Counted from the stretch's first letter, positions 1,731-63,583 are shown. The stretch is DNA of 64,000 nucleotides from Patescibacteria group bacterium (GCA_038062955.1 JBBTWE010000001.1:554271-618270); one strand, 5' to 3'. Numbers and translations: made by a program. Notes: generated by a model from the letters alone, not told the origin.

Positions 1731-2127
1731 GGGGATGATCGGCCTAGACAGAAGAATAATTGGCTGCATGCAAAGCAGAGCTCCGAGAACTCTTAAAAAG
1801 CTCGGAAACACTAAGTGCAAACAACTTAGTTGCAAAAGCTAAATCTATCGTCTCTCCATATTTTGGAAACGAAAAATTGGCTTTCGTTTACGCTTAAAGC
1901 CTAAACGACGTCTCTTCTTTTGACTTCCGATAAGAAGCGAGAGGTGTCATAAAAATCGGGATAGAAAGTTATCTGCCTCAATAACTTTCGAAGTTTAGAG
2001 GCTAAGACATCGAGATGTTTTGTCTGTTTTTAAGTCTCTTTGTTTAAAATACAAAAACAAACTATGCCTTGTAGATTTGCATCCACTTACCTTTTGCACG
2101 GCGGTTCGATTCCGCCCATCTCCACAA
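1731..2127 (+). ncRNA. ssrA: tmRNA (SsrA)
   Basis: Starts GGGGATG... and ends with a tRNA-like T-arm/acceptor (GGCGGTTCGATTCCGCCCATCTCCACA). Internal tag-like ORF ends ...LAFVYA-TAA. Adjacent to smpB. Confidence 0.8.
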
Positions 2128-2138
2128 CAATGAACAAA

Positions 2139-2166
2139 ATGCTCAGAGTAACCCTCTGAGCATTTT
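2139..2166 (+). terminator. Rho-independent terminator after ssrA
   Basis: Hairpin GCTCAGAG-taaccc-TCTGAGC followed by ATTTTGT. Confidence 0.6.
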
Positions 2167-2226
2167 GTATATGGATTTGAGCGGGTTCTAATATTTCTAG
2201 ATTTCGGCAGAGATGACGAGGCTAAC

Positions 2227-2799
2227 TTAGAAATTAAATACCTTCCATTCACAGTCTTTAAGTAGAACTAATTCGAGATTAGTGGCCGTATTCTGCAAAA
2301 CAGTAACTGCTCCTGGGGCAGGCGGCAGTTCTAAGCTTTCGTAATGACAAACTACACGCAAAGGGGCAAGCCCGAGACCCTCGCGCATTACGTCCTCAGA
2401 GTGAGATGCGCCATATTTTGCGATTGCATATGCTCCGGCAGAAGAACCAGCGACTGTCTTATCTTGGATTAAAGGTCGAAGGGATGGGAATGTTCGCAAG
2501 ACGTCTAACAATTTGTTCGTGCTGCCTCCGTGCATATACACGGCATTAGATTTCTTAATTTCCTCCAAGAAACCGTCCTTGGTTGCGAGAATAAATTTAA
2601 TATCCTTGCCGTCTGCTTCAGATAGCATTCTTTCAGCAAGCTCTTTAAAAGTAGTAGAAGGGTCATTATCGCGCGAAGCAAAGAAAACCATAAGCACTGT
2701 TCCACTATTAGGAACGTCTGTCAAAAACTCTTTGAAGAAAAAGCGGTTTAATTCGTTGTCCTTGCGAGTAAATCCTCCGTGGAGAATAAATTTAGTCAT
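2227..2799 (-). CDS. Peptidase S51 family (dipeptidase E / cyanophycinase-like type-1 glutamine amidotransferase fold)
   Basis: 190 aa. Architecture of S51 peptidases (ILATKDGF..., YMHGGSTNKLL, GSSAGA catalytic Ser motif). Confidence 0.65.
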   Translation of the reverse strand: MTKFILHGGFTRKDNELNRFFFKEFLTDVPNSGTVLMVFFASRDNDPSTTFKELAERMLSEADGKDIKFILATKDGFLEEIKKSNAVYMHGGSTNKLLDVLRTFPSLRPLIQDKTVAGSSAGAYAIAKYGASHSEDVMREGLGLAPLRVVCHYESLELPPAPGAVTVLQNTATNLELVLLKDCEWKVFNF

Positions 2800-2842
2800 A
2801 AGAATATTATACCTTGTCTGTGACGGTTTTTTTATAATTAAA

Positions 2843-2871
2843 AACAGCTACTTCGAAAAGTAGCTGTTTTA
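2843..2871. terminator. Bidirectional hairpin terminator
   Basis: Perfect palindrome AACAGCTACTT-cgaa-AAGTAGCTGTT flanked by T/A runs. Confidence 0.6.
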
Positions 2872-2874
2872 GGA

Positions 2875-3135
2875 TCAGATGCCGGGAACACGAGGAACCT
2901 GTATGAGAGATGCGGGGTTTGGAAAATCCCGCACAGTTTGCTCGAACGTCGTGAAGGTAGACGTGAGCAAGCTCTCGAAGGCGCCGAACGGTTCCGACAT
3001 AAGAAACTTGAGAATGAGGATAGTCAGCAAGAGACCTATCGCACCTCGGATGCCAAATGTACGCATGAAAATGGTTCGAGGGGGAACCCTTATTGAGCCG
3101 ACTAAGCTCATTCTCACCCCCGACACTACTGACAT
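2875..3135 (-). CDS. Hypothetical small protein (hydrophobic core) in GC-rich island
   Basis: 86-aa ORF that ends just before the terminator at 2843-2871. Three overlapping ORFs occur here and this one best fits the terminator placement. Local GC is much higher than surroundings. Confidence 0.3.
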   Translation of the reverse strand: MSVVSGVRMSLVGSIRVPPRTIFMRTFGIRGAIGLLLTILILKFLMSEPFGAFESLLTSTFTTFEQTVRDFPNPASLIQVPRVPGI

Positions 3136-3302
3136 GCCATCTCTGGAACATGCCCCTAATGCCGGGGGTATTTCTTTTTTTGAAGAGCAATCTGTTTAAA
3201 AGCTAGCAAAAAATTCTCTTGTTGTCAAAGATAAAAAATTTTGACTTAAACACAGAAATAAGATATCTATATATCCGGACGATCTTACAAAAAAGGAGTC
3301 GC

Positions 3303-3692
3303 ATGATCAGACCCCGATGTCGCCACAGAAGGAGACAGCACATCGCTCAAGCTTTGGTGAAGCACCATGCTTCCCACACCCGCGGACACTGGTGGTGGAA
3401 ACAAACACACCAGAGCATCATGGTTAGATTCAGAGCGCGTTCATTGGTAAACGCAAGAGGTCAGACTTGGGGAAACATCCGCATGCCACGGGACTTAGTG
3501 GAGATCGGCTTCGGAAAGAAAGACGTGCGAGACCAATTCCCCATTGGCTCAGAAATCTATGTGGCCTTTTCGATTGTAGGAACGCGTAGTTCCCCCCAAT
3601 TTATCTGGGAGGGAGTGAAAAAGATCAAACCAGTTTCTTTTAGTAAGGAGAACTCCCAGCTCCAAGAAGCCCACAACGACAAACCGCGATAG
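3303..3692 (+). CDS. Hypothetical Arg/His-rich protein (GC-rich island)
   Basis: AAAGGAG Shine-Dalgarno 5 nt upstream of ATG at 3303. The upstream ATG at 3219 in the ORF track lacks an RBS. No recognisable domain. Confidence 0.5.
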   Translation: MIRPRCRHRRRQHIAQALVKHHASHTRGHWWWKQTHQSIMVRFRARSLVNARGQTWGNIRMPRDLVEIGFGKKDVRDQFPIGSEIYVAFSIVGTRSSPQFIWEGVKKIKPVSFSKENSQLQEAHNDKPR

Positions 3693-3718
3693 ATAATTGA
3701 ATCATCGCGGTTTTTTTT
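3684..3718 (+). terminator. Rho-independent terminator
   Basis: CCGCGAT-13nt-ATCGCGG followed by T8, overlapping the stop codon. Confidence 0.7.
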
Positions 3719-3810
3719 AATTTCCAAACGAATATTTTGACAGAAAATTTAATTTATGTTTATATAAACCAGGATTTTTTACAAATCGTTCTTCAACAAC
3801 TGGAGGTCTC

Positions 3811-4884
3811 ATGAAAGCTCTTTGGCAAGGTATTCTGGTCGTTGTGGCCATCGCGCTCGGTTTGTCTCTCTATTTCATCTATAACAAGACGGGGGCAAGG
3901 GGAAACTTTGTTCCTGCTGAGATTTCGGAAGAGGCTGTTGCTAGATCAGTCCTAAGCTACGCTATTGACCCGATGTTCTCCTCAAGTAATTTGCTTAGCG
4001 ACCTGAATGGTACAAAAGCAAATCTTGTGATGCACGTGTTGGACGAAGACAAGCTTTACTTCTCTCTTCCAAATACCGAAGATTGGGCACTTGCTAGAGA
4101 TTGTTTGACGAAACAACCGGAGAAGATCGAGTTCAGCAGATCAACCGAGGCACCATACAAACTCGGAAGTCTCATCCTGAAGAAAAGAGACGTCTATTTT
4201 TTCCGGATCGACGCGGATGATTTCAAGATTGAGCCGAACGCCCGTCTTCATATCCCATTCAGACAAGCAGTCTACGATCCAACAGCACGCGAACTTGCGA
4301 AGTTCATCACGAATGAAGTGATTATGTGTGGTAGAGAGTATTTTGCCGCAGAAAAGGTGGGTAAGCGGACTGTTTACGCGGCAAACTTCGGCGCCAGAGT
4401 TACCGTTCCGCGCGAATCATCTCTAACCAGACTTGCGAAAGCAATCGTAGGTGAAGAGAAAGATCAAAGTCGCGCTGTTCAGAAGCTTCTCGATTTTGTG
4501 ACGAATGAGATCGAGTATGACAAGGATGAACGCGAATGGGCGGGCAACAGTCAAGTGGTGAAGCGCGCGAATGAAGTCTTGATGACAAAAAGAGCGACTT
4601 GCGCCAGTAAGGCGGCGCTCTATGCGAGTCTGCTCGAACAAATCGATGGGGACTACATCTTCGCGTACTATCCGAAGCACTTGACCGTGTTTGTTTACGG
4701 ACAATATTCGGATTCAAACGGCCACTCGATAGTATACGAAGGGAAACGCTATCATCTGGCTGAAACGACCAATCCCGGTTTCGTAATAGGCTACACCAAA
4801 ATGGAGCCTGAGTTTTCTCCAGAAAACGACTGGACACATCTCCAGAGACCAAAAGACAGGGACGTCCCGAAAGCAAAGAAGTGA
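3811..4884 (+). CDS. Membrane-anchored protein, possible transglutaminase-like cysteine protease fold
   Basis: 357 aa. N-terminal TM/signal (ILVVVAIALGLSLYFIY). C-terminal region with Cys...His spacing (KRATCASKAALYASLLEQ ... YYPKHLTVFV) reminiscent of transglutaminase-like cores. Fold assignment is tentative. Confidence 0.45.
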   Translation: MKALWQGILVVVAIALGLSLYFIYNKTGARGNFVPAEISEEAVARSVLSYAIDPMFSSSNLLSDLNGTKANLVMHVLDEDKLYFSLPNTEDWALARDCLTKQPEKIEFSRSTEAPYKLGSLILKKRDVYFFRIDADDFKIEPNARLHIPFRQAVYDPTARELAKFITNEVIMCGREYFAAEKVGKRTVYAANFGARVTVPRESSLTRLAKAIVGEEKDQSRAVQKLLDFVTNEIEYDKDEREWAGNSQVVKRANEVLMTKRATCASKAALYASLLEQIDGDYIFAYYPKHLTVFVYGQYSDSNGHSIVYEGKRYHLAETTNPGFVIGYTKMEPEFSPENDWTHLQRPKDRDVPKAKK

Positions 4885-4912
4885 GTTTCGTAATCCTCAC
4901 TTCCCCCTCAAA

Positions 4913-4948
4913 GTCACACACCCACACTGTATCGTGGGTGTTTTTTTA
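4913..4948 (+). terminator. Rho-independent terminator
   Basis: CACACACCCACAC-tgtatc-GTGGGTG followed by T7. Confidence 0.7.
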
Positions 4949-4967
4949 TTACCAAAAAAATCTTGCG

Positions 4968-5402
4968 ATGGTACTCTCTTTATGTTTACATAAACGTAGA
5001 TCCAACCCATTTCGGTTTGGACAGTTCTTGGGGAGACAAAACGTGGACGCCACATTCGAACAAATGCTCATAGAAGCGGAACGTATCAGGGCATCGAGAA
5101 AAACACGTGATTTTATCCTTAGACCCTACCAAAGGCATTTTCATTCAATGAGTGAATATGTCCACAAGCAAGGGTTTATCCCGCGCAGAATAGAAGATTG
5201 GTCAGCTAATGATGAGTACCTCGCATTGTGTACAGAACTGGCCATCTATTTTCTAGAGGAAGACCTTGCCGAGGAAATTGGTTCAGTGCTAGACCTATCC
5301 ACCGAGGAAAAGGTTTCGCTTATCGAACGCGTAAGAAGCAAACTTGAACAAGGGATGAGATTTCATGTATGCGTGGTCCGCGGAGATTCAGACACCGAAT
5401 GA
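4968..5402 (+). CDS. Hypothetical protein (GC-rich island); start uncertain
   Basis: ORF track start 4881 overlaps the upstream terminator. First ATG after the terminator is 4968; alternative start about 5063. No recognisable domain. Confidence 0.4.
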   Translation: MVLSLCLHKRRSNPFRFGQFLGRQNVDATFEQMLIEAERIRASRKTRDFILRPYQRHFHSMSEYVHKQGFIPRRIEDWSANDEYLALCTELAIYFLEEDLAEEIGSVLDLSTEEKVSLIERVRSKLEQGMRFHVCVVRGDSDTE

Positions 5403-7753: not shown

Positions 7754-7833
7754 TCCCCGAGATAGCGCACCCGTCTGCATCCCGCAGACAACCCGGATCA
7801 GTTCGCTGATCCATGTTCCAGGAGTTGGATCTC

Positions 7834-8430
7834 ATGCTCAACAAACTTCTCTCGGTCATGGTCTTCATGGCGTGGCTCGTTTGCCCCGCCGTGATCGCCC
7901 AGGCGCCGCATCTCCACGCGTTCGTGGATCCGGTGAACCAGTCGGTGAACACGATCAACGTCAGTTGGTTCGTCGAAACAGGAGAGCTCCTGATGTCGAC
8001 AGCCATCAGCCGTGCTCCAATGATGGAGTTCAACTGGAATGAAGAAGACGGCACCCACAACACGCTCACGACCGAAGTCAGCAACACCAAGGAATGGGTC
8101 TTCGAGATCACATCGATCACCGGCCTCGGAGCGTTCGAGAACGGCAAGATCGTCCCGCAAGGACAAGGCCAGGGTCCGGCTCAGAGTTCCTACACAACCT
8201 CATGGGTCGATTCGAATGGTTCAACATGGACAGTGCTCACGCTACGCACCTCAACCACTGCTGCAGGAAGGAAAGAAGAACTCCGAAACCACCTCGAACA
8301 AGTAAGGGAGATGCAATCAGCATTCCCCCCAAGACCCGTGACGCCACCGCCCGAACCGGAGCCGGAGGAAGCGTTCCTCTCCCCGCCACCCAGGTGGCAC
8401 CGATCCGAGGTACGACTCGCGCTTGTCTAG
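7834..8430 (+). CDS. Secreted Pro-rich hypothetical protein (about 60% GC)
   Basis: AGGAG RBS, then ATG at 7834. Signal peptide MLNKLLSVMVFMAWLVCPAVIAQA with AxA site. C-terminus PPRPVTPPPEPEPEE. GC about 60% against a 35% background. ORFs on other frames and the opposite strand overlap it. Confidence 0.5.
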   Translation: MLNKLLSVMVFMAWLVCPAVIAQAPHLHAFVDPVNQSVNTINVSWFVETGELLMSTAISRAPMMEFNWNEEDGTHNTLTTEVSNTKEWVFEITSITGLGAFENGKIVPQGQGQGPAQSSYTTSWVDSNGSTWTVLTLRTSTTAAGRKEELRNHLEQVREMQSAFPPRPVTPPPEPEPEEAFLSPPPRWHRSEVRLALV

Positions 8431-21366: not shown

Positions 21367-21552
21367 TTACCAGCTCGATTTTTTAACTCCAGGTATCATC
21401 CCCTCATTTGCTAATTCACGGAAACAGATTCTGCAAAGACCGAAATCTCTCATAAATCCCCTTCTGCGGCCACACTTGAAGCAACGCCTAATAACCCTCG
21501 AAGGATATTTTGGTGTCTTTTTTGCTTTTGCAATCAGGGCCTTTGTTGCCAT
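21367..21552 (-). CDS. rpsZ: 30S ribosomal protein S14 type Z (zinc-binding)
   Basis: 61 aa [12 protein letters not shown]...[26 protein letters not shown] track extension to 21660 runs into a MITE and is rejected. Confidence 0.85.
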
Positions 21553-21562
21553 TTTGGGTGAT

Positions 21563-21682
21563 AAACTCCATATTTGGCCAATTTCTTTGCTAAAACCTCC
21601 GCTTCTCACTCGCCGTATCATTAAATACGTCTCGTTTCGATGCTCAGTTTTATCAAACAACTTGTCTCAAATCTGGAAGTTT
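21563..21682. mobile_element. MITE-like mosaic element (family with GAACTTTCAGATTYG termini)
   Basis: Terminal inverted repeats AAACTCCATATTTGGCC / CAAATCTGGAAGTTT. Internal ACGTATTTAATGATACG-type palindrome module. Confidence 0.5.
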
Positions 21683-21834
21683 ATAATTTATAAGAAAGTT
21701 TTATATGAAAAAAGCTTTTAGAAGCTAGGTAAGAAGCATATCAAAAGCCCGAAAGAAGTCAAGAATGAGGGAGGAGGAAAGTTATAATGTTAAAAGTCCC
21801 TTATAAATAAAAAATGAGCAGTGGAATGGTTACC

Positions 21835-23935: not shown

Positions 23936-24026
23936 AGATTTACGATTTACGATATAAGATTTATGATTTTCGGTTATAAATTCTATTTTTTCTGTCTTAC
24001 AAATCTGAAATCTTACATCTGATATC

Positions 24027-24446: not shown

Positions 24447-24485
24447 GATAAAAATTTAAGATATACGATTTAAGATTTATGATTT

Positions 24486-25157: not shown

Positions 25158-25177
25158 TTTAATTTAAGATATAAGAT

Positions 25178-25552
25178 TTAAGATTTTATTGGTTTCTTGT
25201 TTTTTATTGAAACTGTTTTTTCTCCGAGTACCAAGATTACCTTACTTGTTCTCTTTCTTATCGGCACCACTCGGCCCCTTGCTCTAAAACGTCTTCGATA
25301 AAGAATGGCTCCCCCATCAACAGATAATCTCTTTATGTAAAGCGTGTCGGCGGTAACATTCTGGCTCTTGGCGTTAGCTAAAGCTGATTTAATCAGTTTG
25401 GTAAGCGGCGCAGAAGATTTTTTTGGAAGCAAACTTAATTCAACCAAAGCACGTTCAGCATTCTTGCCTTTAAGCAAACTTGCAACCAATCTCATCTTTC
25501 GTGGAGATTGTCTGAAGTCATTCAATTTTGCTGTGATTGTTTTTTGTTCCAT
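25178..25552 (-). CDS. rplV: 50S ribosomal protein L22
   Basis: Sequence and order. Confidence 0.9.
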   Translation of the reverse strand: MEQKTITAKLNDFRQSPRKMRLVASLLKGKNAERALVELSLLPKKSSAPLTKLIKSALANAKSQNVTADTLYIKRLSVDGGAILYRRRFRARGRVVPIRKRTSKVILVLGEKTVSIKNKKPIKS

Positions 25553-27851: not shown

Positions 27852-27861
27852 GTTTGTAGAT

Positions 27862-28572
27862 TTAAGATTTCAGATTTACTTTCGTTTTTTTGTTTTTACC
27901 TGATTCCGAAACAGGGAGTTTATCAGATATACTTTTCAGTGCAACTTTTGGATCAACAACCACCAAATATTTATACTGTAAGAGCATAAGAGGGTTTACA
28001 TTTCTTAGCTCTTCTATTGTTATATTACTGAAATTTCTAAGGCTCATCTCCGCATTTTTATTGCTTTTACTTAAAGCGATAATAGCGTTATTATTTTTCT
28101 TCTCTGAAATTCCTTTAAAACCTTCTACTTTACCTAAATTATTTAAAACTTTTTTAGCATCTTTCGTTTTTGGTTTATCAAAATTTATAGCATCTACAAA
28201 AAGAATTTCATTATCCTTTAGTTTTCTCGAAAGAATTGAGTATAGAGCTTTAGATTTTTTCTTTTTATTGATTTTTTGTGAATAGTCTTTGTCATTACGT
28301 GGACCATGAGAAACTCCTCCACCAACCCAAATAGGAGATCTTGTAGAACCGTGTCTAGCGCGGCCTGTACCCTTTTGTTGCCAAGGTTTTTTACCTCCTC
28401 CACTTACATCCCCTCTGCCTTTAGTGTGAGCTGTTCCACGTCGCATATTTGCTGTCATGCCTAGAGTAACTTCTTTTACCAAATCAGAAGCCCAGGCAAC
28501 ACCAAAAACATCAGTCGGTAAATTTACCTTATCAATCGCTTTTCCTTCCTGGTTGTAAACTACGGATTCCAT
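27862..28572 (-). CDS. rplD: 50S ribosomal protein L4
   Basis: Sequence and order. Confidence 0.9.
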   Translation of the reverse strand: MESVVYNQEGKAIDKVNLPTDVFGVAWASDLVKEVTLGMTANMRRGTAHTKGRGDVSGGGKKPWQQKGTGRARHGSTRSPIWVGGGVSHGPRNDKDYSQKINKKKKSKALYSILSRKLKDNEILFVDAINFDKPKTKDAKKVLNNLGKVEGFKGISEKKNNNAIIALSKSNKNAEMSLRNFSNITIEELRNVNPLMLLQYKYLVVVDPKVALKSISDKLPVSESGKNKKTKVNLKS

Positions 28573-28629
28573 ATTTTTAATTTATTATTTCTTGTTAGAA
28601 CTTTCAGATTTGAGATTTTAGATTACAAT

Positions 28630-29360: not shown

Positions 29361-29482
29361 AAACTTTCAGATTTGAGTGCAGTACTAGGCGCGAGCGAGG
29401 AGCGAACCGAGGCCTATTTGGCAATAGGACGAGGGAGCACCGGAGCAAAGTAACGACGTAATGCACTAAATGTGGAAGTTTT
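29361..29482. mobile_element. MITE-like element (same family), abutting rpsJ stop
   Basis: TIR AAACTTTCAGATTTGAG / AAATGTGGAAGTTTT. Internal core is the reverse complement of the core at 36855-36976. Confidence 0.55.
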
Positions 29483-29861
29483 AGATAATTTTGACATCTA
29501 TATCAACCCCTGAAGGCAAACTCATATTCGTAAGCGATTCGATAATCGCAGGCGCCGGGTTAATGATATCTATCAGTCTTTTGTGCACCCTCATTTCAAA
29601 CTGCTCTCTTGCGTTCTTATAAACGAAAGCCGCCCTGTTAACAGTGTACTTTTTTATTTCTGTTGGGAGAGGGATCGGCCCCAACACTTTGGCATCAAAC
29701 CGAAGAGCTGTGTCGATTATTTGTTTAACCGATAAATCTAATACTTTATATTCATAAGCTCTCACTCGGATGCGAAGCTTGGTGATAGCATTCAAGCCTC
29801 CAGCATTTTTTATGGATGCAGCTTTGGTTTTTTTTGTCGTTACTTTTTTAGTGGTAGGCAT
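29481..29861 (-). CDS. rpsJ: 30S ribosomal protein S10 (N-terminal Lys-rich extension)
   Basis: GPIPLPT...HKRLIDI motifs. Confidence 0.9.
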   Translation of the reverse strand: MPTTKKVTTKKTKAASIKNAGGLNAITKLRIRVRAYEYKVLDLSVKQIIDTALRFDAKVLGPIPLPTEIKKYTVNRAAFVYKNAREQFEMRVHKRLIDIINPAPAIIESLTNMSLPSGVDIDVKII

Positions 29862-29909: not shown

Positions 29910-31100
29910 TTAGGCAGCTATTTTTGTTACCACACCTGCTCCTACAGTCTTTCCTCCCTCTCGGATAGCAAATCTTTGCTGAACTTCTAGGGCAATTGGA
30001 GCAACCAATTTAACTTTAAATTTAACTGTGTCTCCTGGCATAACCATCTCTACTCCTTCTGGCAAAGTAGCTTCTCCAGTAACGTCAGTAGTTCTCATGT
30101 AAAACTGTGGCTTGTAACCTGAAAAGAATGGGGTGTGTCGTCCGCCTTCTTCTTTCTTAAGAACGTAGATTTCAGCTTCAAATTCTGTATGAGGAGTCAC
30201 TGAACCTGGTTTAGCCAAAACTTGTCCACGATGAACATCTTCTTTCTTGAGACCTCGGAGAAGAATTCCGGCGTTATCTCCAGCCAAACCTTCTGAAAGA
30301 GATTTGTTGAACATTTCAATTCCAGTCACAACAGTTTTAGCTGTTGGATGAAGACCGATAATTTCAATTTCTTCACCAACTTTTACTGTACCTCTTTCGA
30401 TTCTTCCGGTAACCACAGTTCCTCGGCCTTCAATTGAGAAGATGTCTTCAACTGGCATAAGGAATGGCTTATCTACCTCTCTCTTTGGCATTGGAATATA
30501 TTCATCAAGAGTGTTGGCAAGTTCCAAAACCTTCTTTGACCAATCATCATTATTATCTTTAGCTTCGAGCGCTTTAAGAGCAGAACCTCTTATAATCGGA
30601 GCAGTTTTTCCATCAAAATCATACTTGGAGAGTAATTCTCTAACTTCTTCTTCCACGAGATCAATAAGTTCAGGATCAGGAACCATATCGCACTTATTCA
30701 AGAAGACGATAATCTTTGGCACACCAACTTGTTTTGCAAGAAGAATATGTTCTCTGGTCTGTGGCATAACACCGTCAGTTGCGGCAACAACCAAGATCGC
30801 ACCGTCCATTTGGGCGGCACCAGTAATCATGTTCTTGATGTAATCAGCATGTCCTGGAGCATCAATGTGAGCATAGTGTCTTTTAGCTGTTTCGTACTCG
30901 TTGTGAGAAAGAGCAATAGTAATACCTCGAGCTTTTTCTTCTGGAGCGGAGTCAATTTGGTCTACTCCTTTTATTTTTACGTCAAAACCAGCTCGGTGAA
31001 GAACGTTTAAAATAGCTGCTGTTAAAGTAGTTTTCCCGTGATCAACGTGACCGATGGTTCCTACGTTAACATGGGGTTTGCTTCTATTAAATTCTGCCAT
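29910..31100 (-). CDS. tuf: Elongation factor Tu
   Basis: [25 protein letters not shown]... Track start 31127 runs into the MITE, so trimmed to 31100. Confidence 0.95.
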
Positions 31101-31108
31101 AGTGTTAT

Positions 31109-31261
31109 AACTTTCACATTTGGCCAATTACTTTGCTAAAATCTGCGCTTCGATGCTGATTTCTACATCATAGAAATCATGTCGGAAGATTTTTTATCAC
31201 GAAGTGATATAAAATTTCTGACTCAGTTTTATCAAAGAACTTGTCTCAAATCTGGAAGTTC
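31109..31261. mobile_element. MITE-like element immediately upstream of tuf
   Basis: TIR AACTTTCACATTTGGCC / CAAATCTGGAAGTTC. Contains the GAAATCATGTCGGAAGATTTTTTATCACGAAGTGATATAAAATTTC module shared with 50371 and 62280. Confidence 0.55.
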
Positions 31262-31394
31262 TAAGTTATTAGTAAATAATTATTAAAATTTTATCAAAAT
31301 TTAAATCAAATTGATTATTTTTGCTTACATACAAAAACAAAAATAGCGCAAAAGCGTTATCTGACATATTAACAAACATAATAAAAGAGTCAAC

Positions 31395-31459
31395 CCCGTA
31401 GTAGATTTTGGCATAGCAACTTCGTTGCGACAGCAACAATGCCAAAATCTACTACGGGG
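31395..31459. repeat. Long hairpin repeat (family B): CCCCGTAGTAGATTTTGGCAT ... ATGCCAAAATCTACTACGGGG
   Basis: Perfect 21-bp arms. Homologous copy at 63245-63301. The CTACTACGGG motif recurs at 9292, 36493, 54370 and 54466. Confidence 0.7.
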
Positions 31460-31487
31460 TCAAGGGATGATTTAGTTTTATAGGTTA

Positions 31488-31560
31488 ACCCGCCTAAATT
31501 TTTCTTGAAAAACTTTGGCGGGTAAAAGAAAAGACCCGTACCGAAGTACAGGCCCCATTT
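31488..31560. repeat. About 70-bp repeat (family C) at the 3' end of a GC-rich gene
   Basis: TTAACCCGCCTAAATTTTTC...GGCGGGTAAAAGAAAAGACCC. Homologous copy at 42762-42835 in the same position relative to another GC-rich minus-strand gene. Confidence 0.65.
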
Positions 31561-32072
31561 TAGGCTTTGGAATGCACTTGGCGAGAGAACACTCGACAAT
31601 TGCCAAAGCCCCTGTGAGACCACTTGAATGAACTGTGTGTGGTCATAGCGCCAATACGCCAACTACCATCAATCCAGGACACGTAGACAGTACGAAGCGT
31701 ACCTGCAACATCTCTGACATAGAAAATGTTGGCCATGGCATTTGTAAGAAGAACACCACGTTCACGATTCTCTTGCATCTTCATGAGAGAAGACATCACC
31801 GTCAAGGTGGTTTCAGCTTTTGCTTCACCACCAAGTTCATCTATGATGGAACTGTTGCAACAGGGCTGACACAATTCGTGATAACAGAGAGTCTGTTCGT
31901 CTTGTGGCTCCTCAACCTTGCCGTCACCCGCGAAAAACCAAATGTTGAAATTTTTTCTGGGGCAGTTTGGTCTTGCCTTAACTTCTCCACGACCGAACTT
32001 GGTCTTGGCAACCAACTTTTCAGCACTTGCAGACATGACAATCGTCCCAACAGTCTTGAGAATTGCAGACAT
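31560..32072 (-). CDS. Hypothetical Cys-containing protein (GC about 50%) inserted between fusA and tuf
   Basis: 170 aa. AGGAGG RBS 7 nt upstream of ATG. No recognisable domain. ORFs on the opposite strand overlap it. Confidence 0.5.
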   Translation of the reverse strand: MSAILKTVGTIVMSASAEKLVAKTKFGRGEVKARPNCPRKNFNIWFFAGDGKVEEPQDEQTLCYHELCQPCCNSSIIDELGGEAKAETTLTVMSSLMKMQENRERGVLLTNAMANIFYVRDVAGTLRTVYVSWIDGSWRIGAMTTHSSFKWSHRGFGNCRVFSRQVHSKA

Positions 32073-32319
32073 GACACACCTCCTAGATGTGTTTTGAATT
32101 GGATTTGTGACTTAGCGAAGTTGCTTTGCCACAGCAGGAGAAAGCCCAGGTTTTGGGCTGCATTCTGCTGTGGCAAACACGTATTTCTAACAAAGAACAA
32201 TCAAATATAGTATACACCCTTGCAGTATTTTTGTCAAGAACAAATTAGCCCTAGAAACAAGGTTAGTTTATGTATAAACAGGGTAAATAAGGAAAAAATA
32301 GTAGCAAATCAAAATTCTT

Positions 32320-34464
32320 TTACTTGCGAGATTCGATGATTTCAAGAGCTACGTTTTGAGGCACAATAGCATAATGATCAAATTCCATTGTTGAAGTACC
32401 ACGGCCAGAGGTCATAGAGCGTAGGGTTGTAACGTAACCGAACATTTCAGAGAGAGGAACAGTTGCTTTGATAGTTTTAAGATCACCTCGTTCTTCCATT
32501 CCTTCAATCTGTCCGCGTCTTCCACTCAAATCACCAGAAATATCACCCATGAATTTCTCTGGAGTAACGACTTCAACTCTCATGATTGGTTCAAGTAAAA
32601 CTGGCTTTGCTTTTTTGGCAGCTTCCTGAAAAGCTTGGGAGGCAGCAATTTTGTAGGCAATTTCTGAAGAATCAACATCGTGGTAAGAACCGAAAAGAAG
32701 ATCGCAAGAAATATTTGTCATCTTGAAACCAGCCACAATTCCCCTCTCGGTTGCTTCTTTAAGACCCTTTTCTACAGCTGGAATAAATTCTTGTGGAATA
32801 GCGCCTCCTTTGATGGAATCAATGAATTCAAAATCTCCAGTTCTCTTAACATTTTTAGGCACTTTCTTTTCTGGATCAAGTTTCTCCATTGGGGCAATCT
32901 TGATTTTAACGTGACCGTACTGTCCCTTACCTCCGGATTGCTTAATGTATTTAACTTCAGCTTCAGCGGTTCCAGTCACAGTTTCTTTGTAAGCTACTTG
33001 AGGTTTACCAACAGCTGTCTCAACAGAAAATTCTCTTTTCATACGATCAACCAAAATTTCTAGGTGAAGCTCTCCCATACCCATGATGATAGTTTCCCCA
33101 GTTTCGGCATCACTTTTAATTCTGAATGTTGGGTCTTCATCCGAAAGACGTTTAAGAGCCATACCCATTTTTTCTTGGTCGGCTTTTGTTTTAGGTTCAA
33201 TACGAAGAGAAATAACTGGCTCTGGAACAACAATTTTATCCAAAATAATCGGATTTTTCTCATCACAAAGAGTGTGAGAGGTTTTAGCTTCTTTAAGACC
33301 CACAGCGGCGGCAATTTCTCCGGAATAAACCTTCTTTACCTCCTCTCTCTTGTCTGCCTGAAGTCTCACGATACGGCCTAAGCGCTCGGTCTTTCCGGTT
33401 GAGGAATTGTAAATATAGGTACCGGCTTCCACTACTCCAGAATAAACTCTAAAGAATGCGAGTTGGCCCACGAATGGATCGTTTTGCAGTTTAAACACAA
33501 GAGCAGAAAGAGGCTCTTCATCGGATGGATGCCTCAACACTTCTTCATTGGTGTCAGGATGAACTCCCTTTACCGCTTTAATATCAAGCGGAGACGGCAA
33601 ATACTCGGTAACTGCATCGAGAACGAGCTGAACTCCTTTATTTTTAAGAGCGGAGCCAGTAAATACTGGAAAGAGACTACTACTGATTGTTGCTTTTCGA
33701 ATTGTTTTCTTCAAATCCTCGATTGAAATTTCTTTCCCTTCGAGATATGCGCTCATAAGGACATCATCAAATTCAACTACCTTCTCAACTAATTCTGCTC
33801 GGTATTTTTTTGACTCTGCGAGCATATCGGCCGGAATTTCTTTCTCGATAATGTTTATTCCTTTTTCACCGTCAAAATAATAGGCCTTCATCTTGAGGAG
33901 ATCAATCACTCCTTCAAAATTTTCTTCAGAGCCGATTGGCAACTGCATTCTTACAGCATTTTTATTCAAACGATCAAGAATTGAAGCGAAAGATTTATTG
34001 AAACTCGCTCCCATTCTATCGAGCTTATTGATGAAACAGATTCTTGGCACTTTTCCTTCATCGGCATATCGCCAATTAGTTTCTGATTGCGGTTCTACGC
34101 CGGCGACACCGTCGAACACCACGACCGCGCCGTCTAGTACACGGAGAGATCTTTTTACTTCAATTGTAAAATCAATGTGTCCTGGAGTATCGATAATATT
34201 GAAACGAAATTTCTTCGAATCATCCCCTTTTGGCATGTAGGTTGGATTCCAAAAACAAGTAATAGCGGCGGCGGTAATAGTAATACCTCTTTCTCTTTCT
34301 TGTTCCATCCAATCAGTGGTGGTTTCGCCCTCATGAACTTCACCGATCTTATGAATCATTCCGGTGTAATACAAAATACGCTCACTGGTTGTGGTTTTCC
34401 CAGCATCAATGTGCGCGATAATACCGAAATTACGTACTTTTTCTAGAGGATAATCACGATTCAT
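32320..34464 (-). CDS. fusA: Elongation factor G
   Basis: 714 aa, GTPase motifs [17 protein letters not shown]. Confidence 0.95.
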
Positions 34465-34755
34465 ATGATTTAAGATTTACGATTTATGATTTAAGAAATC
34501 AGTTAATTACTTTTTAAAAATTGTTCGAGCGATTATTATTATCGCATGAAATGGGCGATCCCAGTTCTAATTTTAATTGTAAATCAACTAGCAAAGCGCT
34601 TCGCCCATACAAGGAAGCGCTATTCGCGCACGCGCTTTGCGTGAGAAAGTGATTGAGCTTCTTTCAATTACGTTCTGTAAAAATAACTTGGTAAAATTAG
34701 AACAGGATGCTCCATTTTGCTAAGTAATTTTTCGACGGCAAAAGCCGTCTAAAAA

Positions 34756-35226
34756 TTACCAAGCAAAATGGGCAAACGCCTTGTTCGACTCCGCCATTCT
34801 GTGAGTATTTTCCCTCTTTTTCATAGCTTCACCCTCACTCTTGCTTGCCGCAATGAGCTCATCAGCAAGCTTCATGGCCATAGGAACTCCTTTTCGGCTT
34901 CTAGCAGCCTCAATTATCCATTTCATAGACATTGCTTGTCTGCGTTCTGGTCTAACTTCTCTTGGAATCTGATAATTAGCTCCTCCAACACGGCGAGATC
35001 TAACTTCCATAGAAGGACTAGTGTTTTTTATAGCAGTATCAAAAATTTCTAGAGGATTTTCTGTTTTGGCCTTTTCTTTTATGAGATCCATCGCTTCATA
35101 GACAACTTTCCTGGCAACTTCTTTTTTGCCGTCGTTCATCACGTAATTTATAAATTTATCCACCTTAACGGAGTTAAATTTAAAGTCTGGATGAATTTCT
35201 CTTTTTGTTCTGATTTTTCTTCTCAT
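34756..35226 (-). CDS. rpsG: 30S ribosomal protein S7
   Basis: Sequence and order. Confidence 0.9.
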
Positions 35227-35247: not shown

Positions 35248-35664
35248 CTATTTAGCAGCCTTCGGTTTTTTAGCTCCGTACTGGCTTCTGCCTTTCATTC
35301 TTTTCTCTACACCTGTTGCATCAAGCACACCTCTTACGATGGTATACCGGAGACCAACGTCTTTTACTCTACCACCGCGGATCATAACCACTGAATGCTC
35401 TTGGAGATTGTGTCCAATACCTGGAATGTACGCAGTTACTTCCATACCATTTGTGAGTCGAACTCTCGCAATTTTTCGAATAGCGGAGTTTGGTTTCTTA
35501 GGAGTTTTAGTTGTTACTTTAATACATACACCTCTTTTAAAAGGAGCTGGAAAATAAACCGGTCGATTTTTTAAAGTATTAAAACCACGAGCCAAAGCAA
35601 CGGCCTTTGATTTTTTATATACTTTTATTCTTTTTCTTCGGACTAATTGATTTATTGTCGGCAT
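35248..35664 (-). CDS. rpsL: 30S ribosomal protein S12
   Basis: [10 protein letters not shown]... Confidence 0.95.
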
Positions 35665-42391: not shown

Positions 42392-42760
42392 ATGGAGGAT
42401 AAAAACTGTATTTTTTGTAAAATAGTTAAAAAAGAAATTCCAGCAAATATTGTCTATGAAGACAATGATTTTCTAGCCTTTTTGGATATTCACCCACAAT
42501 CCCCTGGGCACACCCAAGTGATTCCCAAAAAACATTTTAGATATGTATGGGATGTTCCGAATGCCGGAGAATATTTTGAAATAGCAAAAAAAGTGGCTCT
42601 AGCCCAGAGAAAAGCATTTAAGACTGACTGGATTTTAAGCAAAATTGTTGGAGATGAAGTTGAACACGCACACATTTGGGTTTTTCCCGGAAACGATGCG
42701 ATTGGAGACAAAAACGACTTCAAACAAAACGCCGAGGAAATTATTAAAAATTTGGATTAA
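42392..42760 (+). CDS. HIT family (histidine triad) hydrolase
   Basis: HAHIWVFP triad, 122 aa. Confidence 0.8.
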   Translation: MEDKNCIFCKIVKKEIPANIVYEDNDFLAFLDIHPQSPGHTQVIPKKHFRYVWDVPNAGEYFEIAKKVALAQRKAFKTDWILSKIVGDEVEHAHIWVFPGNDAIGDKNDFKQNAEEIIKNLD

Positions 42761-42761
42761 C

Positions 42762-42835
42762 CCGCCAAAATTTTTGCGGAGCAAAAACTTAGGAGGGTAA
42801 AAGAAAAGCCCCACACCAAGTGTGGAGCCGGAGTT
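42762..42835. repeat. Family C repeat copy 2
   Basis: TTAACCCGCCAAAATTTTTGC...GGAGGGTAAAAGAAAAGCCCC. Confidence 0.65.
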
Positions 42836-42855: not shown

Positions 42856-43512
42856 TTAGTAGCAGAACCAGATTGCCGTCGTGACGAGCCAGCTCAATTC
42901 ATTGCCTGACTCGCCGATTAGCATTCCTTGGTTCTTCTTGTTCCAACCATCCTGTCGTGCCGCGAGCCAAATCTCAACTAGCCTCGTGCAAACAGTGATG
43001 TGACCTATCGTGAGAGTCGCACCTGCCAAACCGTCTTTTCGACCTGCAACGATGATGCAGTACCCGATAAACAGTTGAGGCACACTCTTGAGTAGCAACG
43101 CGATAATGCCTCTGGTGATCGGTTCAGAAACTGTCGCAACGAGCGACCCTTTCCGTCGTGTTACCAGTAGCACCGCGAGACTAACGAGAATCAAAATGGT
43201 GAGTATCGTGTCTTGTCTCGACCACGTGCCCTTGATGGCGATGATGGCGAACAAAGTAAGCCAGAGCAGCAACCAGTTTGCATACACGAGCACCACCTGA
43301 CCAGCCTTTCGACTCTTCGACTGTTCATAAGCTCCGAGAGCCAAGAACAAATTGATGAGAACGAATGCCGAGCAGAACATGGTCCATGTAATGGTCATGC
43401 CCGCAGTGCTCTCAAGAGAACGGATGACTTGCGGCACAGTGAAGGCCCAAGCCATTGATAGCTGGAACCAGAAAAGCAGGTCGCCAGCTAGCCGCTTGTT
43501 TTCGGCAGACAT
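42856..43512 (-). CDS. GC-rich polytopic membrane protein, possible PQ-loop repeat family
   Basis: 218 aa, about 7 TM. Two PQ motifs (VPQVIR, VPQLFI) about 110 aa apart. Local GC about 52%. Confidence 0.4.
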   Translation of the reverse strand: MSAENKRLAGDLLFWFQLSMAWAFTVPQVIRSLESTAGMTITWTMFCSAFVLINLFLALGAYEQSKSRKAGQVVLVYANWLLLWLTLFAIIAIKGTWSRQDTILTILILVSLAVLLVTRRKGSLVATVSEPITRGIIALLLKSVPQLFIGYCIIVAGRKDGLAGATLTIGHITVCTRLVEIWLAARQDGWNKKNQGMLIGESGNELSWLVTTAIWFCY

Positions 43513-46066: not shown

Positions 46067-46208
46067 AAACTTTCAGATTCCTGCCTGCCGGCAGGCAGGT
46101 GAGACAAGTTTTTTAATAAAACCGAGCACCGAAACGAGACGTATTACCTATACGATGAAGTGAGGCGCGGAGGTTTTAGTAAAAAAATTGGCCAAATATG
46201 GAAGTTCT
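46067..46208. mobile_element. MITE-like element abutting a pilin-like gene stop
   Basis: TIR AAACTTTCAGATTC / CCAAATATGGAAGTTC. Contains the 20-bp CCTGCCTGCCGGCAGGCAGG palindrome and a GACGTATTACCTATACG module. Confidence 0.55.
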
Positions 46209-56304: not shown

Positions 56305-56318
56305 GCTCTCACTTCGTT

Positions 56319-56388
56319 CGGGGCGCCGAGAATCGAACTCGGGCCACATGATCCCAAATCATGTATACTACCGCTATACTACGCCCCG
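56319..56388 (-). tRNA. tRNA-Pro (anticodon UGG)
   Basis: Manual cloverleaf: acceptor CGGGGCG/CGCCCCG, anticodon loop UUUGGGA, T-arm CCGAG-UUCGAUU-CUCGG. Confidence 0.7.
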
Positions 56389-56479
56389 TTTTTAAACAAA
56401 CAAAACTTATACTTAATGCGACATCGAAATAAATGTTATGTTATGCTAGCATATTCCTGTTCGGTAATGAAATTCCAAA

Positions 56480-56797
56480 ATGAAAATTGATAGGAAGTTT
56501 CAAAGAACAGTTGAAGATTTTAAATGCACACATTGTGGAGCTGAAATTAAAGGAAATGGCTACACAAATCATTGTGAGAACTGTCTCTGGAGTAAACATG
56601 TAGACAAAAACCCAGGCGATAGGTCTTCAAATTGCAATGGCGAAATGCCACCATTGAGTGTATTCCAAAGAAAAGGAAACTATTTTTTGGTTCATAAATG
56701 CACGAAATGTGGTTTAGAGAAAAACAATAAAGTGTCCGGCAAAGATGATTTTGAAAAGGTGCTTCATCTTTCAAGTGGTATAGAAAAGAAAAAGTAA
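56480..56797 (+). CDS. RNHCP-domain zinc-ribbon protein
   Basis: CTHCG...NHCENC...CTKCG motifs. Confidence 0.6.
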   Translation: MKIDRKFQRTVEDFKCTHCGAEIKGNGYTNHCENCLWSKHVDKNPGDRSSNCNGEMPPLSVFQRKGNYFLVHKCTKCGLEKNNKVSGKDDFEKVLHLSSGIEKKK

Positions 56798-56807
56798 AAA
56801 ATGTAAA

Positions 56808-56881
56808 GCGGGATTAGTTAAATGGTATAACTCCAGTTTTCCAAACTGGTGTCGGGAGTTCGATTCTCCCATCCCGCACCA
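56808..56881 (+). tRNA. tRNA-Gly (anticodon UCC), CCA encoded
   Basis: GCGGGAT acceptor, anticodon stem CCAGU / loop UUUCCAA, T-arm GGGAG-UUCGAUU-CUCCC, 3' ATCCCGCACCA. Confidence 0.8.
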
Positions 56882-56896
56882 ATAGAGCGAAGCTGG

Positions 56897-57026
56897 GCGG
56901 GATAGAACGTGCCTGCGCACGTTCGTGGGAGAATCGAAAGGGTTTTCGATGTTTCTGAAAAGCTTTGTTTTGAGGAAACCGAAAACCACCTGACTACGTG
57001 ATAGCCGATTCTCTCACCCCGCACCA
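56897..57026 (+). other. tRNA-like composite element, copy 3, downstream of tRNA-Gly(UCC)
   Basis: Begins GCGGGATAG (same as the tRNA 5' end). Then 8-bp hairpin GAACGTGC-ctgc-GCACGTTC. Then long element closed by GAGAATCG...CGATTCTC. Ends CCCCGCACCA (copy of the tRNA 3' end). Confidence 0.5.
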
Positions 57027-57042
57027 ATTTAGTATCAGTTCC

Positions 57043-57438
57043 CTACTCCGGCACCACATCTTCAATAATTTTTACTCGAGCAACTTTCTTAATCGGGTCA
57101 AAAAGAATTGAAATGACTAAGAAATTCCAATCCGAATCTTCTTTGTGTTTGCTCCATAAGTAAACCTGGATTGTTTTAGAAATTCGACGAAGTTTCCCCG
57201 CATTTACTTTTTCTTCCGGACGAGGACGATTTATCAAAGACAAAGATTCTAATTGTTTTAAATCCACCGTTTCTGTTTTTACCTCAACAAAACATATTTG
57301 TTTGTCTTTTTCAGCAACTATATCGATTTCGCCGCATTTTTTAGAATAATTCCTATCTAAAATTTTATATCCTTTTTCTATAAGGATTTTGCAGGCTATA
57401 TCCTCACCTTTATTCCCTGTTTTCTTTTTCTCAAACAT
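57043..57438 (-). CDS. yraN: YraN family (UPF0102) endonuclease-like protein
   Basis: GEIDIVA...FVEVK core. Confidence 0.7.
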   Translation of the reverse strand: MFEKKKTGNKGEDIACKILIEKGYKILDRNYSKKCGEIDIVAEKDKQICFVEVKTETVDLKQLESLSLINRPRPEEKVNAGKLRRISKTIQVYLWSKHKEDSDWNFLVISILFDPIKKVARVKIIEDVVPE

Positions 57439-57676
57439 TAATTAGAAATAAAAAAACAATTTTTTAGACCTTTTTAAACAGACTAAATGACCAGAATAAC
57501 CTTAAGGGACTGCTTTTTGTCTTTAAATACACATTTCCACAGACTTATCCACAGTTCCTAAACAAACTTTTTAGATTAAATTTTTCAAAGAGGGCTTATT
57601 TTATAAACTTTCCAAAAAAATTATTTTTAATTTATACCTTAATATTGCCTAATCAATATTTTTAAGGACATTTTTT

Positions 57677-57803
57677 GGTGCGGGTGCCGGGAATCGACCG
57701 TTACTCGGTCAGTCCCCTTGTTGGATAAATTTTCGTTTTTCAAACTCAAATTTATGCTCAACAAGGCTTCGATTCCCTGAAAAAGTGCTTCCGAGCACTT
57801 TTT
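57677..57803 (-). other. tRNA-linked composite structured element, copy 2, downstream of tRNA-Gly(GCC)
   Basis: Minus-strand: tRNA-Gly, then GAACGAAGTGA, then hairpin AAAAGTGCTCGGAAGCACTTTT, then 90-nt element (GGGAATCGA...TCGATTCCC), then GGCACCCGCACCA. The last 22 of 24 nt match the tRNA-Gly(GCC) 3' end GGTTCGATTCCCGGTACCCGCAC. Confidence 0.6.
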
Positions 57804-57835
57804 CTACCCTTTCTAATTTCACTTCGTTCAATTTG

Positions 57836-57906
57836 TGCGGGTACCGGGAATCGAACCCGGGTCTCGTCCTTGGCAAGGACGTGTCATACCATTAAACTAT
57901 ACCCGC
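57836..57906 (-). tRNA. tRNA-Gly (anticodon GCC)
   Basis: GCGGGTA acceptor, anticodon stem CGUCC / loop UUGCCAA, T-arm CCGGG-UUCGAUU-CCCGG. Confidence 0.8.
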
Positions 57907-58029
57907 TTTTTTTTAAGTGCTACTCGAAAAGAATAGCAAAGATTTGCGTTTGTTTCTAGTTAGAAATTTACTAGTAAATAAAAAGAGCCTAAAGCTAGAA
58001 CTTAGGGCCCTGTGATTTGTATACGCTTC

Positions 58030-58295
58030 TCAAGAACAAGTTTTGGGACAGTTATGTGTCTCACCAATCTGAAACTTTGCGCCGCAGAGATTGCAGATCT
58101 GTAGTGGAAGCATATGTCCTGTCATGAATATTGCACCACAACAATCGCAGCCATAAGCGGTGGCATCATCCCACAAGTCACGGCTCCCACACTTCATGCA
58201 CCTACCAGTAAAGTGTCCTGTGGGCAAATTGTTAGGATTATTAGTCATCTGAAGCTGGGCCAGTTCATTCACGTCTGTGATTGGTGTCTTCATTA
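58030..58295 (-). CDS. Small Cys-rich (10 Cys) zinc-ribbon-like protein, GC-rich
   Basis: GAGAGG RBS then ATG (MKTPITDV...). CxxC...CxCC...CxxC...CxxxC pattern. GC about 50% against AT-rich flanks. Confidence 0.45.
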
Positions 58296-58396
58296 TTTCC
58301 TCTCTTTTGAAAGAACAGAGATATTGGTAGTTTTGAGAGACACACCAATAATCTATTTTCATACTCGCATACAAACACCAAGAGGTCAAAATTTTG

Positions 58397-58468
58397 TGCG
58401 CCCGGCAGGACTCGAACCCGCAATAACGGTTCCGAAGACCGTTGTGATATCCATTTCACCACAGGCGC
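58397..58468 (-). tRNA. tRNA-Arg (anticodon UCG; anticodon call tentative)
   Basis: Acceptor GCGCCUG/CGGGCGC (one G-U), D-arm GUGA...UCAC, anticodon loop CUUCGGA, T-arm GCGGG-UUCGAGU-CCUGC. Confidence 0.6.
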
Positions 58469-63244: not shown

Positions 63245-63301
63245 TCTTTTGGCATCGTCACATTCGCAACGGAAGTTGCTATGGCAAAATCTACTACGGG
63301 G
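63245..63301. repeat. Family B hairpin repeat copy
   Basis: TTTTGGCATCGTCACATTCGCAACGGAAGTTGCTATGGCAAAATCTACTACGGGG, homologous to 31395-31459. Confidence 0.65.
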
Positions 63302-63454
63302 TTGACTGGAACACTATAAATAATATACAATTGGGTACTAATGGTTCGCCCGCAAGGCGAGCCAAATTTTTTAGAAAAATAAGACGCAAAGCGACTATAT
63401 TTTTCTTAACCCTAAATAAGGTGTTCTAGAAATTAATCGCTTATTACAAAATTA

Positions 63455-63575
63455 GAACTTTCAGATTTGAGACAAGTTTGTTGGAAAAACTGAGCACCGA
63501 AACAAGACGTATTTAATAATACGATGAAGTGAGGAGCGGAAGTTTTTACGACAAAATTGGCCGAATGTGAAAGTT
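63455..63575. mobile_element. MITE-like element upstream of nusA
   Basis: TIR GAACTTTCAGATTTGAG / CCGAATGTGAAAGTT. GACGTATTTAATAATACG palindrome module. Confidence 0.6.
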
Positions 63576-63583
63576 ATAACATC

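Follow-up and report, generated by a model that had tools for sequence, protein, structure and literature searches.

In Escherichia coli and most other bacteria, the classical str operon has the gene order rpsL-rpsG-fusA-tufA. One class of miniature inverted-repeat transposable elements (MITEs), flanked by TA, derives from elements of the IS630/Tc1-mariner type, the Correia elements of Neisseria being one example. Among diversity-generating retroelements (DGRs), a clade specific to the Candidate Phyla Radiation (CPR), DGR clade 2, has target proteins without recognizable domains (Roux et al. 2021, PMC8144416). Here, we analysed the spacer between fusA and tuf in a Patescibacteria metagenome-assembled genome (MAG), within a 64-kb stretch of DNA that we refer to as the window (556,562–620,561 of CAYIIC010000001.1, GCA_964363395.1). 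The spacer contains an open reading frame (ORF) of 170 aa (ORF170), hairpins and a MITE, and is probably composed of three layers of different age: an orphan cassette encoding a DGR variable protein, two repeat hairpins, and the ancestral promoter and leader of tuf, in which the MITE lies. ORF170 is of a known kind; the novelty lies in where it is placed, in its being an orphan and, most of all, in the conserved leader that precedes it.

As in the classical str operon, the genes run rpsL-rpsG-fusA-...-tuf-rpsJ along a single strand, but tuf has a conserved promoter-like region of its own, and the gap between fusA and tuf is wider in this clade than elsewhere. The spacer is neither short nor free of independent signals: its 1,219 bp contain a candidate promoter, a predicted terminator and a second candidate promoter. 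The element at tuf resembles MITEs of the IS630/Tc1-mariner type in being short (158 bp) and non-coding, in its terminal inverted repeats (TIRs) and TA flanks, and in its many dispersed intergenic copies, which here lie in transcribed leaders and beside gene starts and stops. Unlike those MITEs, the elements in this genome are modular, with interchangeable inner hairpin modules, and were found only in loci of this genome and not in those of its sisters.

Relatives of ORF170 share with the CPR DGR variable proteins of clade 2 (PMC8144416; prototypes TvpA and Mtd) variable repeats (VRs) that differ from a template repeat (TR) at adenines only, together with genes for bAvd and a reverse transcriptase (RT; RVT_1). 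Like the targets described in that study, ORF170 has no transmembrane segment and no known domain, and the shuffling of N-terminal modules within its family agrees with the intragenic recombination that the study proposed. It differs from such targets in having no RT, Avd or TR within 73 kb, in showing no variants and in missing the N-terminal module. Integron gene cassettes are likewise single-ORF units swapped at a fixed site, each with an imperfect hairpin; here, however, the hairpin precedes the ORF and follows a promoter that each unit brings with it, and the cassettes are dispersed singly rather than in arrays. An integron cassette with an attC site was rejected on these grounds, no attC-like core being recognizable by eye and no integrase gene being present in the Pfam-annotated neighbourhoods, a set that excludes the loci of leader-cassette relatives such as L109, L096 and L120.

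ORF170 and its variable-protein family

ORF170 (31560–32072, minus strand) is recorded in identical form as a hypothetical protein on the 703,865-bp contig of this MAG and on Hainich groundwater contigs. Its homologues, more than 150 at 37–51% identity, belong to Patescibacteria in every case where the source names a taxon. A profile built from 120 of them detected 3,917 cluster representatives at E≤1e-3, and it also matched ORF170 at E 1.3e-64, a circular value given that ORF170 is itself in the profile. By our reading of the homologue list, ORF170 keeps 39 of the 44 near-invariant positions of the family. Most homologues have 200–240 aa with a variable N-terminal module; ORF170, which has no such module, is one of the short forms, and forms of 160–180 aa are common. 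Some members contain tandem ORF170-like domains, in five or two copies (P0241, 926 aa; P0242, 379 aa), and the N-terminus of P0242 resembles a signal peptide by eye.

The genomic context of the homologues connects this family with DGRs. In locus L154, the order is P0074 - TR - bAvd - RVT_1 - P0049, both P0074 and P0049 being family members, and a single TR serves these two targets, each within about 2 kb of it; the first VR differs from the TR at 20 positions and the second at 21, all of them at TR adenines. In locus L155, likewise, the family member P0008 precedes the bAvd and RVT_1 genes, and its 14 VR/TR mismatches are confined to TR adenines. The last ~115 nt of these targets are repeats of the intergenic template, and the variable C-terminal columns of the family (GVLRAVxVxWxDDGWxVxAxSVxxPxxWxxGxRVFSRN) coincide exactly with the AAC codons of the L154 and L155 templates. 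Because P0074, P0049 and P0008 flank bAvd and RVT_1 genes and show adenine-only VR/TR differences, ORF170 is, judged by sequence homology, a member of a DGR variable-protein family, and this family fits the CPR-specific DGR clade (PMC8144416). An anonymous hypothetical protein is thereby placed in a family of at least 3,900 clusters at 50% identity that has no Pfam model and whose members can be labelled CPR DGR variable proteins.

Profile searches and structure prediction had been suggested as a route to the identity of this protein, and it was the genomic context of the homologues that settled it. No usable match to ORF170 was obtained in Pfam, NCBIfam, PADLOC or PHROGs (zero in NCBIfam and PADLOC, and a single chance-level match with E 0.22 in PHROGs), and a sequence search of the PDB returned no relevant match. 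The AlphaFold model is confident (pLDDT 90.6); its fold may resemble that of C-type lectins, for which TvpA and Mtd are the structural prototypes among DGR variable proteins, and a Foldseek search against the PDB gave nothing significant. A RING or zinc finger was also considered and rejected; the Pfam match was sub-threshold and stemmed from the cluster C63, C68, C71 and C72, in which C63 alone recurs in the family.

Residues 124–165 of ORF170 (GTLRTV...RVFSRQ; 31578–31703, minus strand) are equivalent to the VR, with 62–65% nucleotide identity to the VR and TR of L154 and L155. Scaffold residues are kept in this region, as is the conserved 12-nt VR-end GTGTTCTCTCGC, at 31581–31592. In relatives, adenine-specific mutagenic retrohoming rewrites the scaffold to which the C-terminal ~40 residues would correspond, and is expected to yield a variable ligand-binding surface on a C-type-lectin-like fold. 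ORF170 itself is most likely a binding protein fixed in one specificity.

In tblastn searches, three RTs and one Avd matched the window at chance level only (E≥1.3) and had no match in L156, the 9 kb beyond the right end of the window; one RT match at 31301–31510 (E 3.0) was dismissed as noise from AT-rich sequence. Across these 73 kb, the window and L156 together, neither a template repeat nor a second copy of the ORF170 3′ end was detected. The 90% cluster of ORF170 (P0001) consists of one member sequence, and the identical protein occurs on 9 contigs from several assemblies, with no variants. ORF170 therefore reads as an orphan and, to judge from these sequences, currently fixed copy.

The original prediction described ORF170 as a foreign gene of about 50% GC with a strong AGGAGG site. 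Both the ORF and the Shine-Dalgarno (SD) site are real, the latter lying at 32079–32084 (minus strand), 6 nt before the ATG, whereas the GC content was overstated: it is 46.6%, compared with 41% in fusA and tuf and 38.8% in the window. GC content at third codon positions (GC3) separates the gene better than total GC, with 0.47 in ORF170 against 0.23–0.41 in neighbouring core genes and a median of 0.315 over the 68 ORFs of the window, a set of automatic calls of at least 90 aa rather than curated genes. An SD-like 4-mer precedes 7 of these 68 ORFs, all seven being GC3-rich outliers, and none of eight core genes inspected by eye has such a motif, their leaders being AT-rich. ORF170 is accordingly foreign in composition, as had been claimed, and the contrast with native genes that have weak or no SD sites is general in this genome. 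Other GC3-rich ORFs (GC3 0.50–0.70, against the median of 0.315) lie at 3303–3692, 3811–4884, 13103–15917, 42856–43512 and 7813–8430. The SD-like motif is confined to ORF170 and ORFs within the first four of these regions; 7813–8430 has none. Imported genes in this genome thus seem to be marked by an SD site together with high GC3, a pair that could serve as a recognition mark for them against a native background that has neither. Around the start of ORF170 (32027–32098), the 13-nt direct repeat GTCATGTCTGCAA occurs at the start codon and again 36 nt downstream, which yields a second, in-frame ATG at codon 13.

Predicted promoter, leader and terminator of the cassette

The first layer of the spacer (~32237–31531) would consist of a near-consensus promoter of the sigma-70 type, a structured leader, the strong SD site, ORF170 and an intrinsic terminator. 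The candidate promoter, TTGACA-17-TATACT (32209–32237, minus strand), matches 11 of 12 consensus positions, and transcription of the cassette is expected to start just downstream of it; a homologous TTAGCCAC..TTGACAA..TATACT region precedes other cassettes. The conserved 5′ leader (32121–32219, minus strand) contains a GTTCTTTG motif followed by the long hairpin TTTGCCACAGCAG...CTGCTGTGGCAAA at 32125–32177 (53 nt, dG −33.3, z −5.7). A 12-bp inverted repeat previously noticed here (2 matches against 0.16 expected) proved to be a portion of this longer hairpin, which belongs to a conserved leader common to many cassettes. The predicted terminator follows directly after the ORF170 stop codon (31531–31556, minus strand; 11-bp stem, TTCG loop, U-run, z −5.05), and a similar GGGTCTTTTCTTTT tail is found after other cassettes.

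In an alignment of 17 leaders, 99.3% of the cells in the stem are paired, compared with 35–62% in slid controls, and compensatory changes occur in 9 of 16 pairs, a number that none of 500 shuffles reached. One pair is U-G in 14 of the 17 sequences, which favours an RNA structure on the sense strand, and the covariance model (CM R1) scored the ORF170 leader at 86.5 bits in the sense orientation against 44.7 in the antisense. A search of the leader and all other hairpins against Rfam gave no match at the gathering score and, at E≤5, only generic microRNA-precursor hairpins. A dimeric operator resembling CIRCE is unlikely given the spacer between the arms, which varies from ~20 to 33 nt, and the strand-specific U-G pairs. 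A phage origin of the leader was likewise rejected, as a scan of viral contigs gave two matches, both without the left arm and attributable to chance.

A metagenome scan for the hairpin gave ~15 true instances, each preceded by a promoter of this type and followed by a GC3-rich ORF that differs from case to case; across the 17 sequences, the ORFs behind the leader have a GC3 of 0.5–0.8. These leaders precede members of the ORF170 family (L114 and L123), members of a second family, ORFy (L096 and L112/L124), and, in L109 and L129, proteins that share N-terminal modules with ORF170 homologues. Two leader-bearing loci, L098 and L124, each contain a complete DGR: Avd and RT lie next to the target, and the mismatches, 7 and 14 respectively, fall exclusively on TR adenines; the targets of L154 and L155 have a diverged version of the leader. 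In 12 leader-bearing loci, the flanking sequence extends over several kb; Avd and RT are present in four of these, an RT remnant in one, and neither in seven, which indicates that stand-alone cassettes are common. Locus L022, which has an RT remnant, was found with the covariance model in another Hainich Patescibacteria MAG: between rplL and tuf (1852–4989), it carries the leader, a gene of the ORF170 family (2015–2626) and a C-terminal RT fragment (4633–4812), and is a decayed DGR directly upstream of tuf. DGR target genes thus also exist as promoter-to-terminator cassettes without a retroelement.

Tentatively, and with the balance of probability still somewhat against it, we propose that the promoter and leader together (TTAGCCAC..TTGACAA-17-TATACT, the GTTCTTTGATA motif and the covarying hairpin with its GCCAYAGC/GCTRTGGC outer stem) may constitute an undescribed, exchangeable variable-protein expression cassette of Patescibacteria, that the leader may be a new cis-acting RNA element, and that the space before tuf may be a preferred landing site. 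If so, the leader could be where DGR target genes are regulated or their transcripts processed, or could provide a homology handle for cassette swapping. The conserved hairpin can be tested as a candidate for a new RNA element linked to DGR targets. The same 11-mer GTTCTTTGATA, located in cassette leaders between the −10 box and the hairpin, also occurs in the MITE upstream of tuf (31226–31240), either by chance or as a shared binding site. A 16-nt inverted match between the leader tail (32116–32131) and the loop of the family-B hairpin upstream of tuf (31409–31424) was considered as a pair of cassette TIRs and discarded, being barely above chance and not found in the sisters.

The fusA-tuf slot and the tuf leader

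The borders of the slot are fusA upstream (32320–34464, minus strand), a 714-aa ORF whose homologues in sister genomes are 96–97% identical and carry EF-G Pfam domains, and tuf downstream (29910–31100, minus strand; ATG at 31100, stop at 29910), encoding EF-Tu. That the two genes are parted by about 1.2 kb was confirmed by the measured distance of 1,219 bp. In the sisters (L091–L095, and L094 = L097), the corresponding position between fusA and tuf is taken by a homologous promoter and leader, followed by other cargo: either a DUF6498 gene with ORFx (106 aa, GC3 0.70), or ORFy (GC3 0.63), in L091–L095 and L094; the DUF6498 gene, in L091, is AT-rich. With different genes held by sisters whose FusA is 96–97% identical, the synteny comparison indicates that ORF170 is not ancestral at this site, in agreement with the original prediction.

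The prediction that the spacer represents a rare break in a near-universal fusA-tuf adjacency is not supported for this clade. In the 21 loci nearest by EF-Tu (71–85% identical, with fusA found upstream), the gap ranges from 116 to 4,745 bp, with a median of ~960 bp, and exceeds 380 bp in 19 of them, whereas it measures 40–247 bp in 23 loci of other phyla outside the CPR. The gaps of the relatives hold unrelated small genes. Given the different cargo of the sisters and a spacer that is routinely occupied, ORF170 has recently arrived at this site or replaced other cargo there, the slot being in habitual use across the clade, and fusA-tuf adjacency is not usable as a synteny expectation in Patescibacteria. 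The region between fusA and the tuf promoter would then be a site of replaceable cargo, where sisters hold other cassettes of the same promoter-leader class and exchange may proceed by recombination through the highly conserved flanks. Even in the chromosome's most conserved gene cluster, genomes that are nearly identical would exchange stand-alone cassettes.

Elsewhere, the ORF170 homologues of L001, L002 and L004 lie in unrelated neighbourhoods; their GC3 is higher than that of the adjacent genes in L001 and L002, and only marginally higher in L004. A recurrent small ORF with an N-terminus resembling Phd/YefM by eye (…GKxIIxENGKPxxVxMxxxxY…) occupies the fusA-tuf gaps of several Patescibacteria lineages (L028, L029, L035, L038, L048 and L089). 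At other positions (L109, 496–1244 and 12273–12960; L096, 12836–13354), syntenic relatives hold different leader cassettes or none, and L120 contains at least five GC-rich single-gene islands (GC 0.50–0.56) amid AT-rich housekeeping genes (GC 0.37–0.41).

On the tuf side, a promoter-like site, TTGACT-16-TG-TAATAT (31366–31393, minus strand), has an orthologous counterpart in L091 and L095, where TTGACT..TAAGAT stands immediately before tuf, and the tuf 5′ leader (31269–31378, minus strand) is 89% identical to L091 4957–5068 and L095 3851–3962. In these sisters, the leader ends 10 nt before the tuf ATG, uninterrupted and with no MITE. The MITE (31106–31263, 158 bp) has the TIRs TAGAACTTYCAGATTYG, TA on both flanks and no ORF; the tuf ATG is 5 nt from its flanking TA and 7 nt from the TIR core. 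As proposed beforehand, it is a true insertion right by the tuf start, as the empty site in L091 and L095 demonstrates. Since the leader already ends 10 nt before the ATG in the MITE-free sisters, the MITE arrived as a separate, later event within a leader that tuf already had. Its TIR pattern was detected in no sister locus and only in loci of this genome, where the window contains 22 TIR-like 15-mers against 3.3 expected and ~9 elements can be delimited in 64 kb. Most copies have TA at both ends; at tuf, the length of the empty site fits a TA duplication or TA as the end of the TIR equally well. A nested double-hairpin module (31153–31224) includes 51 nt that are 100% identical to L091 1299–1349 and occurs alone elsewhere.

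Dependence of tuf on a promoter supplied by the insert or the MITE, as first suggested, is not borne out. The site at 31366–31393 and the 110 nt downstream of it are conserved (89%) in the sisters, where they abut tuf without the MITE, and the sole consensus-like site in the MITE (31113–31142, plus strand) faces away from tuf. By this comparison, tuf appears to have its own promoter region, older than the MITE, and with such a conserved leader and promoter it needs no promoter from the insert. Insertion of the MITE into the ancestral leader, 5–7 nt upstream of the ATG, would have lengthened the leader by ~158 nt, with the last ~30 nt before the ATG still predicted to be unpaired in the minimum-free-energy fold.

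Two repeat hairpins, whose presence had been correctly noted, lie between the cassette terminator and the tuf promoter. Family C (ACCCGCC...GGCGGGT; hairpin at 31488–31523, minus strand, z −4.4) belongs to a repeat at the 3′ end of the gene (~31485–31542) that recurs at 42757–42817 and in L091 at 8311–8343. Family B (31393–31460, minus strand; dG −46.9, z −10.5) has perfect arms of 22 nt rather than the 21 bp first reported. On the 3′ side, this hairpin extends exactly as far as the tuf −35 box, and the homology breakpoint against the sisters, whose tuf-upstream regions lack the hairpin, falls inside the promoter spacer. Standing behind the terminator, the two hairpins would form a second layer that probably insulates tuf from read-through. 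A half copy of family B at 63272–63307 is joined to GGGGTTGACT upstream of nusA. The region before nusA (63272–63586; ATG at 63584, plus strand) is laid out like that of tuf, with the family-B arm fused to GGGGTTGACT and then a MITE (63448–63585), and the spacing from MITE to start codon is equal (GTTA-TA-ACATC-ATG at nusA, GTTA-TA-ACACT-ATG at tuf).

Competing explanations and further features

The explanation from which this analysis started, namely that one foreign insertion of gene plus MITE split an ancestral fusA-tuf operon and that tuf is now driven from the insert or the MITE, has become very improbable. The foreign composition of ORF170, the contact of the MITE with the tuf start and the three strong hairpins behind ORF170, which would hinder read-through from fusA, are all in its favour. 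Nevertheless, sisters and most relatives already have a filled spacer with different cargo, the promoter and leader of tuf predate the MITE and lie outside the cassette, and the MITE has a single promoter-like site, which is directed away from tuf. Gene and MITE represent separate events, moreover, with 110 nt of ancestral sequence between them. It is only slightly easier to regard ORF170 as a decaying, functionless relic of a lost DGR, an idea that we consider improbable. The lack of a local DGR, an N-terminus shorter than in most homologues (170 aa against 200–240 aa), the insertion in the VR-like region and the RT fragment just upstream of tuf in L022 are what one would expect of a relic; however, the frame is intact and is accompanied by a consensus promoter, an SD site and a terminator, most near-invariant positions of the family are kept, short forms of comparable length are common, and the structural model is confident.

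Somewhat more credible, though still unlikely, is that ORF170 is the active target of a remote DGR, whose RT, Avd and TR elsewhere in the 704-kb genome rewrite its C-terminal codons in trans via the conserved VR-end. Its family is a proven DGR target family, the VR-end is retained, and one TR serves two targets in L154, although both of these lie close to it. Against this stand the missing TR, RT and Avd within 73 kb, the single-sequence cluster with an identical protein on nine contigs and the changes within the VR-equivalent region; RT is also missing from seven of the 12 leader-bearing loci whose flanks extend over several kb. The three-layer reading, with ORF170 as an orphan cassette, remains the one that we favour, and several points weigh against it. 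The DGR search covered 73 kb of the 704-kb genome, and the ~630 kb outside leave room for a distant DGR acting in trans. Compared with verified VRs, the VR-like region of ORF170 has scaffold substitutions and an insertion of 3–4 aa, and may no longer be a competent target, which says nothing about what the protein binds. As regards the leader, 14 of the 17 sequences came from a pattern that fixes the 3′ arm, so that the independent evidence for pairing lies in the 5′ arm and the inner stem, and the homologues in L001, L002 and L004 have other leaders. The functions ascribed to the promoters, terminator and leader rest on sequence and its conservation.

The minus-strand gene order around the slot is rpsL (35248–35664), rpsG (34756–35226), fusA, ORF170, tuf, rpsJ (29481–29861), rplC and rplD. 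MITE copies or TIRs are also present inside the S10 and spc operons, at 29362–29480 (rpsJ/rplC), 28599–28613 (rplC/rplD) and 21558–21690, the last of these lying 5–11 nt upstream of a 61-codon gene that starts at 21552. MITE ends at 46207 and 51876 reach the stop codon of the neighbouring gene or come within a few nt of it, and at 46207 the TIR supplies the TAG. The window further contains a tmRNA gene and four tRNA genes (Pro-TGG, Gly-TCC, Gly-GCC and Arg-TCG), at 1731–2127 and 56318–58468. Finally, tandem heptamers of the form TAAATCN stand immediately before the start codon in fusA, rplW and several genes of the spc operon (34467–34492, 27859–27877, 25168–25186, 24460–24485 and 23937–23969); with 24 matches against 4.8 expected, they may represent a signal for SD-independent translation or for regulation.

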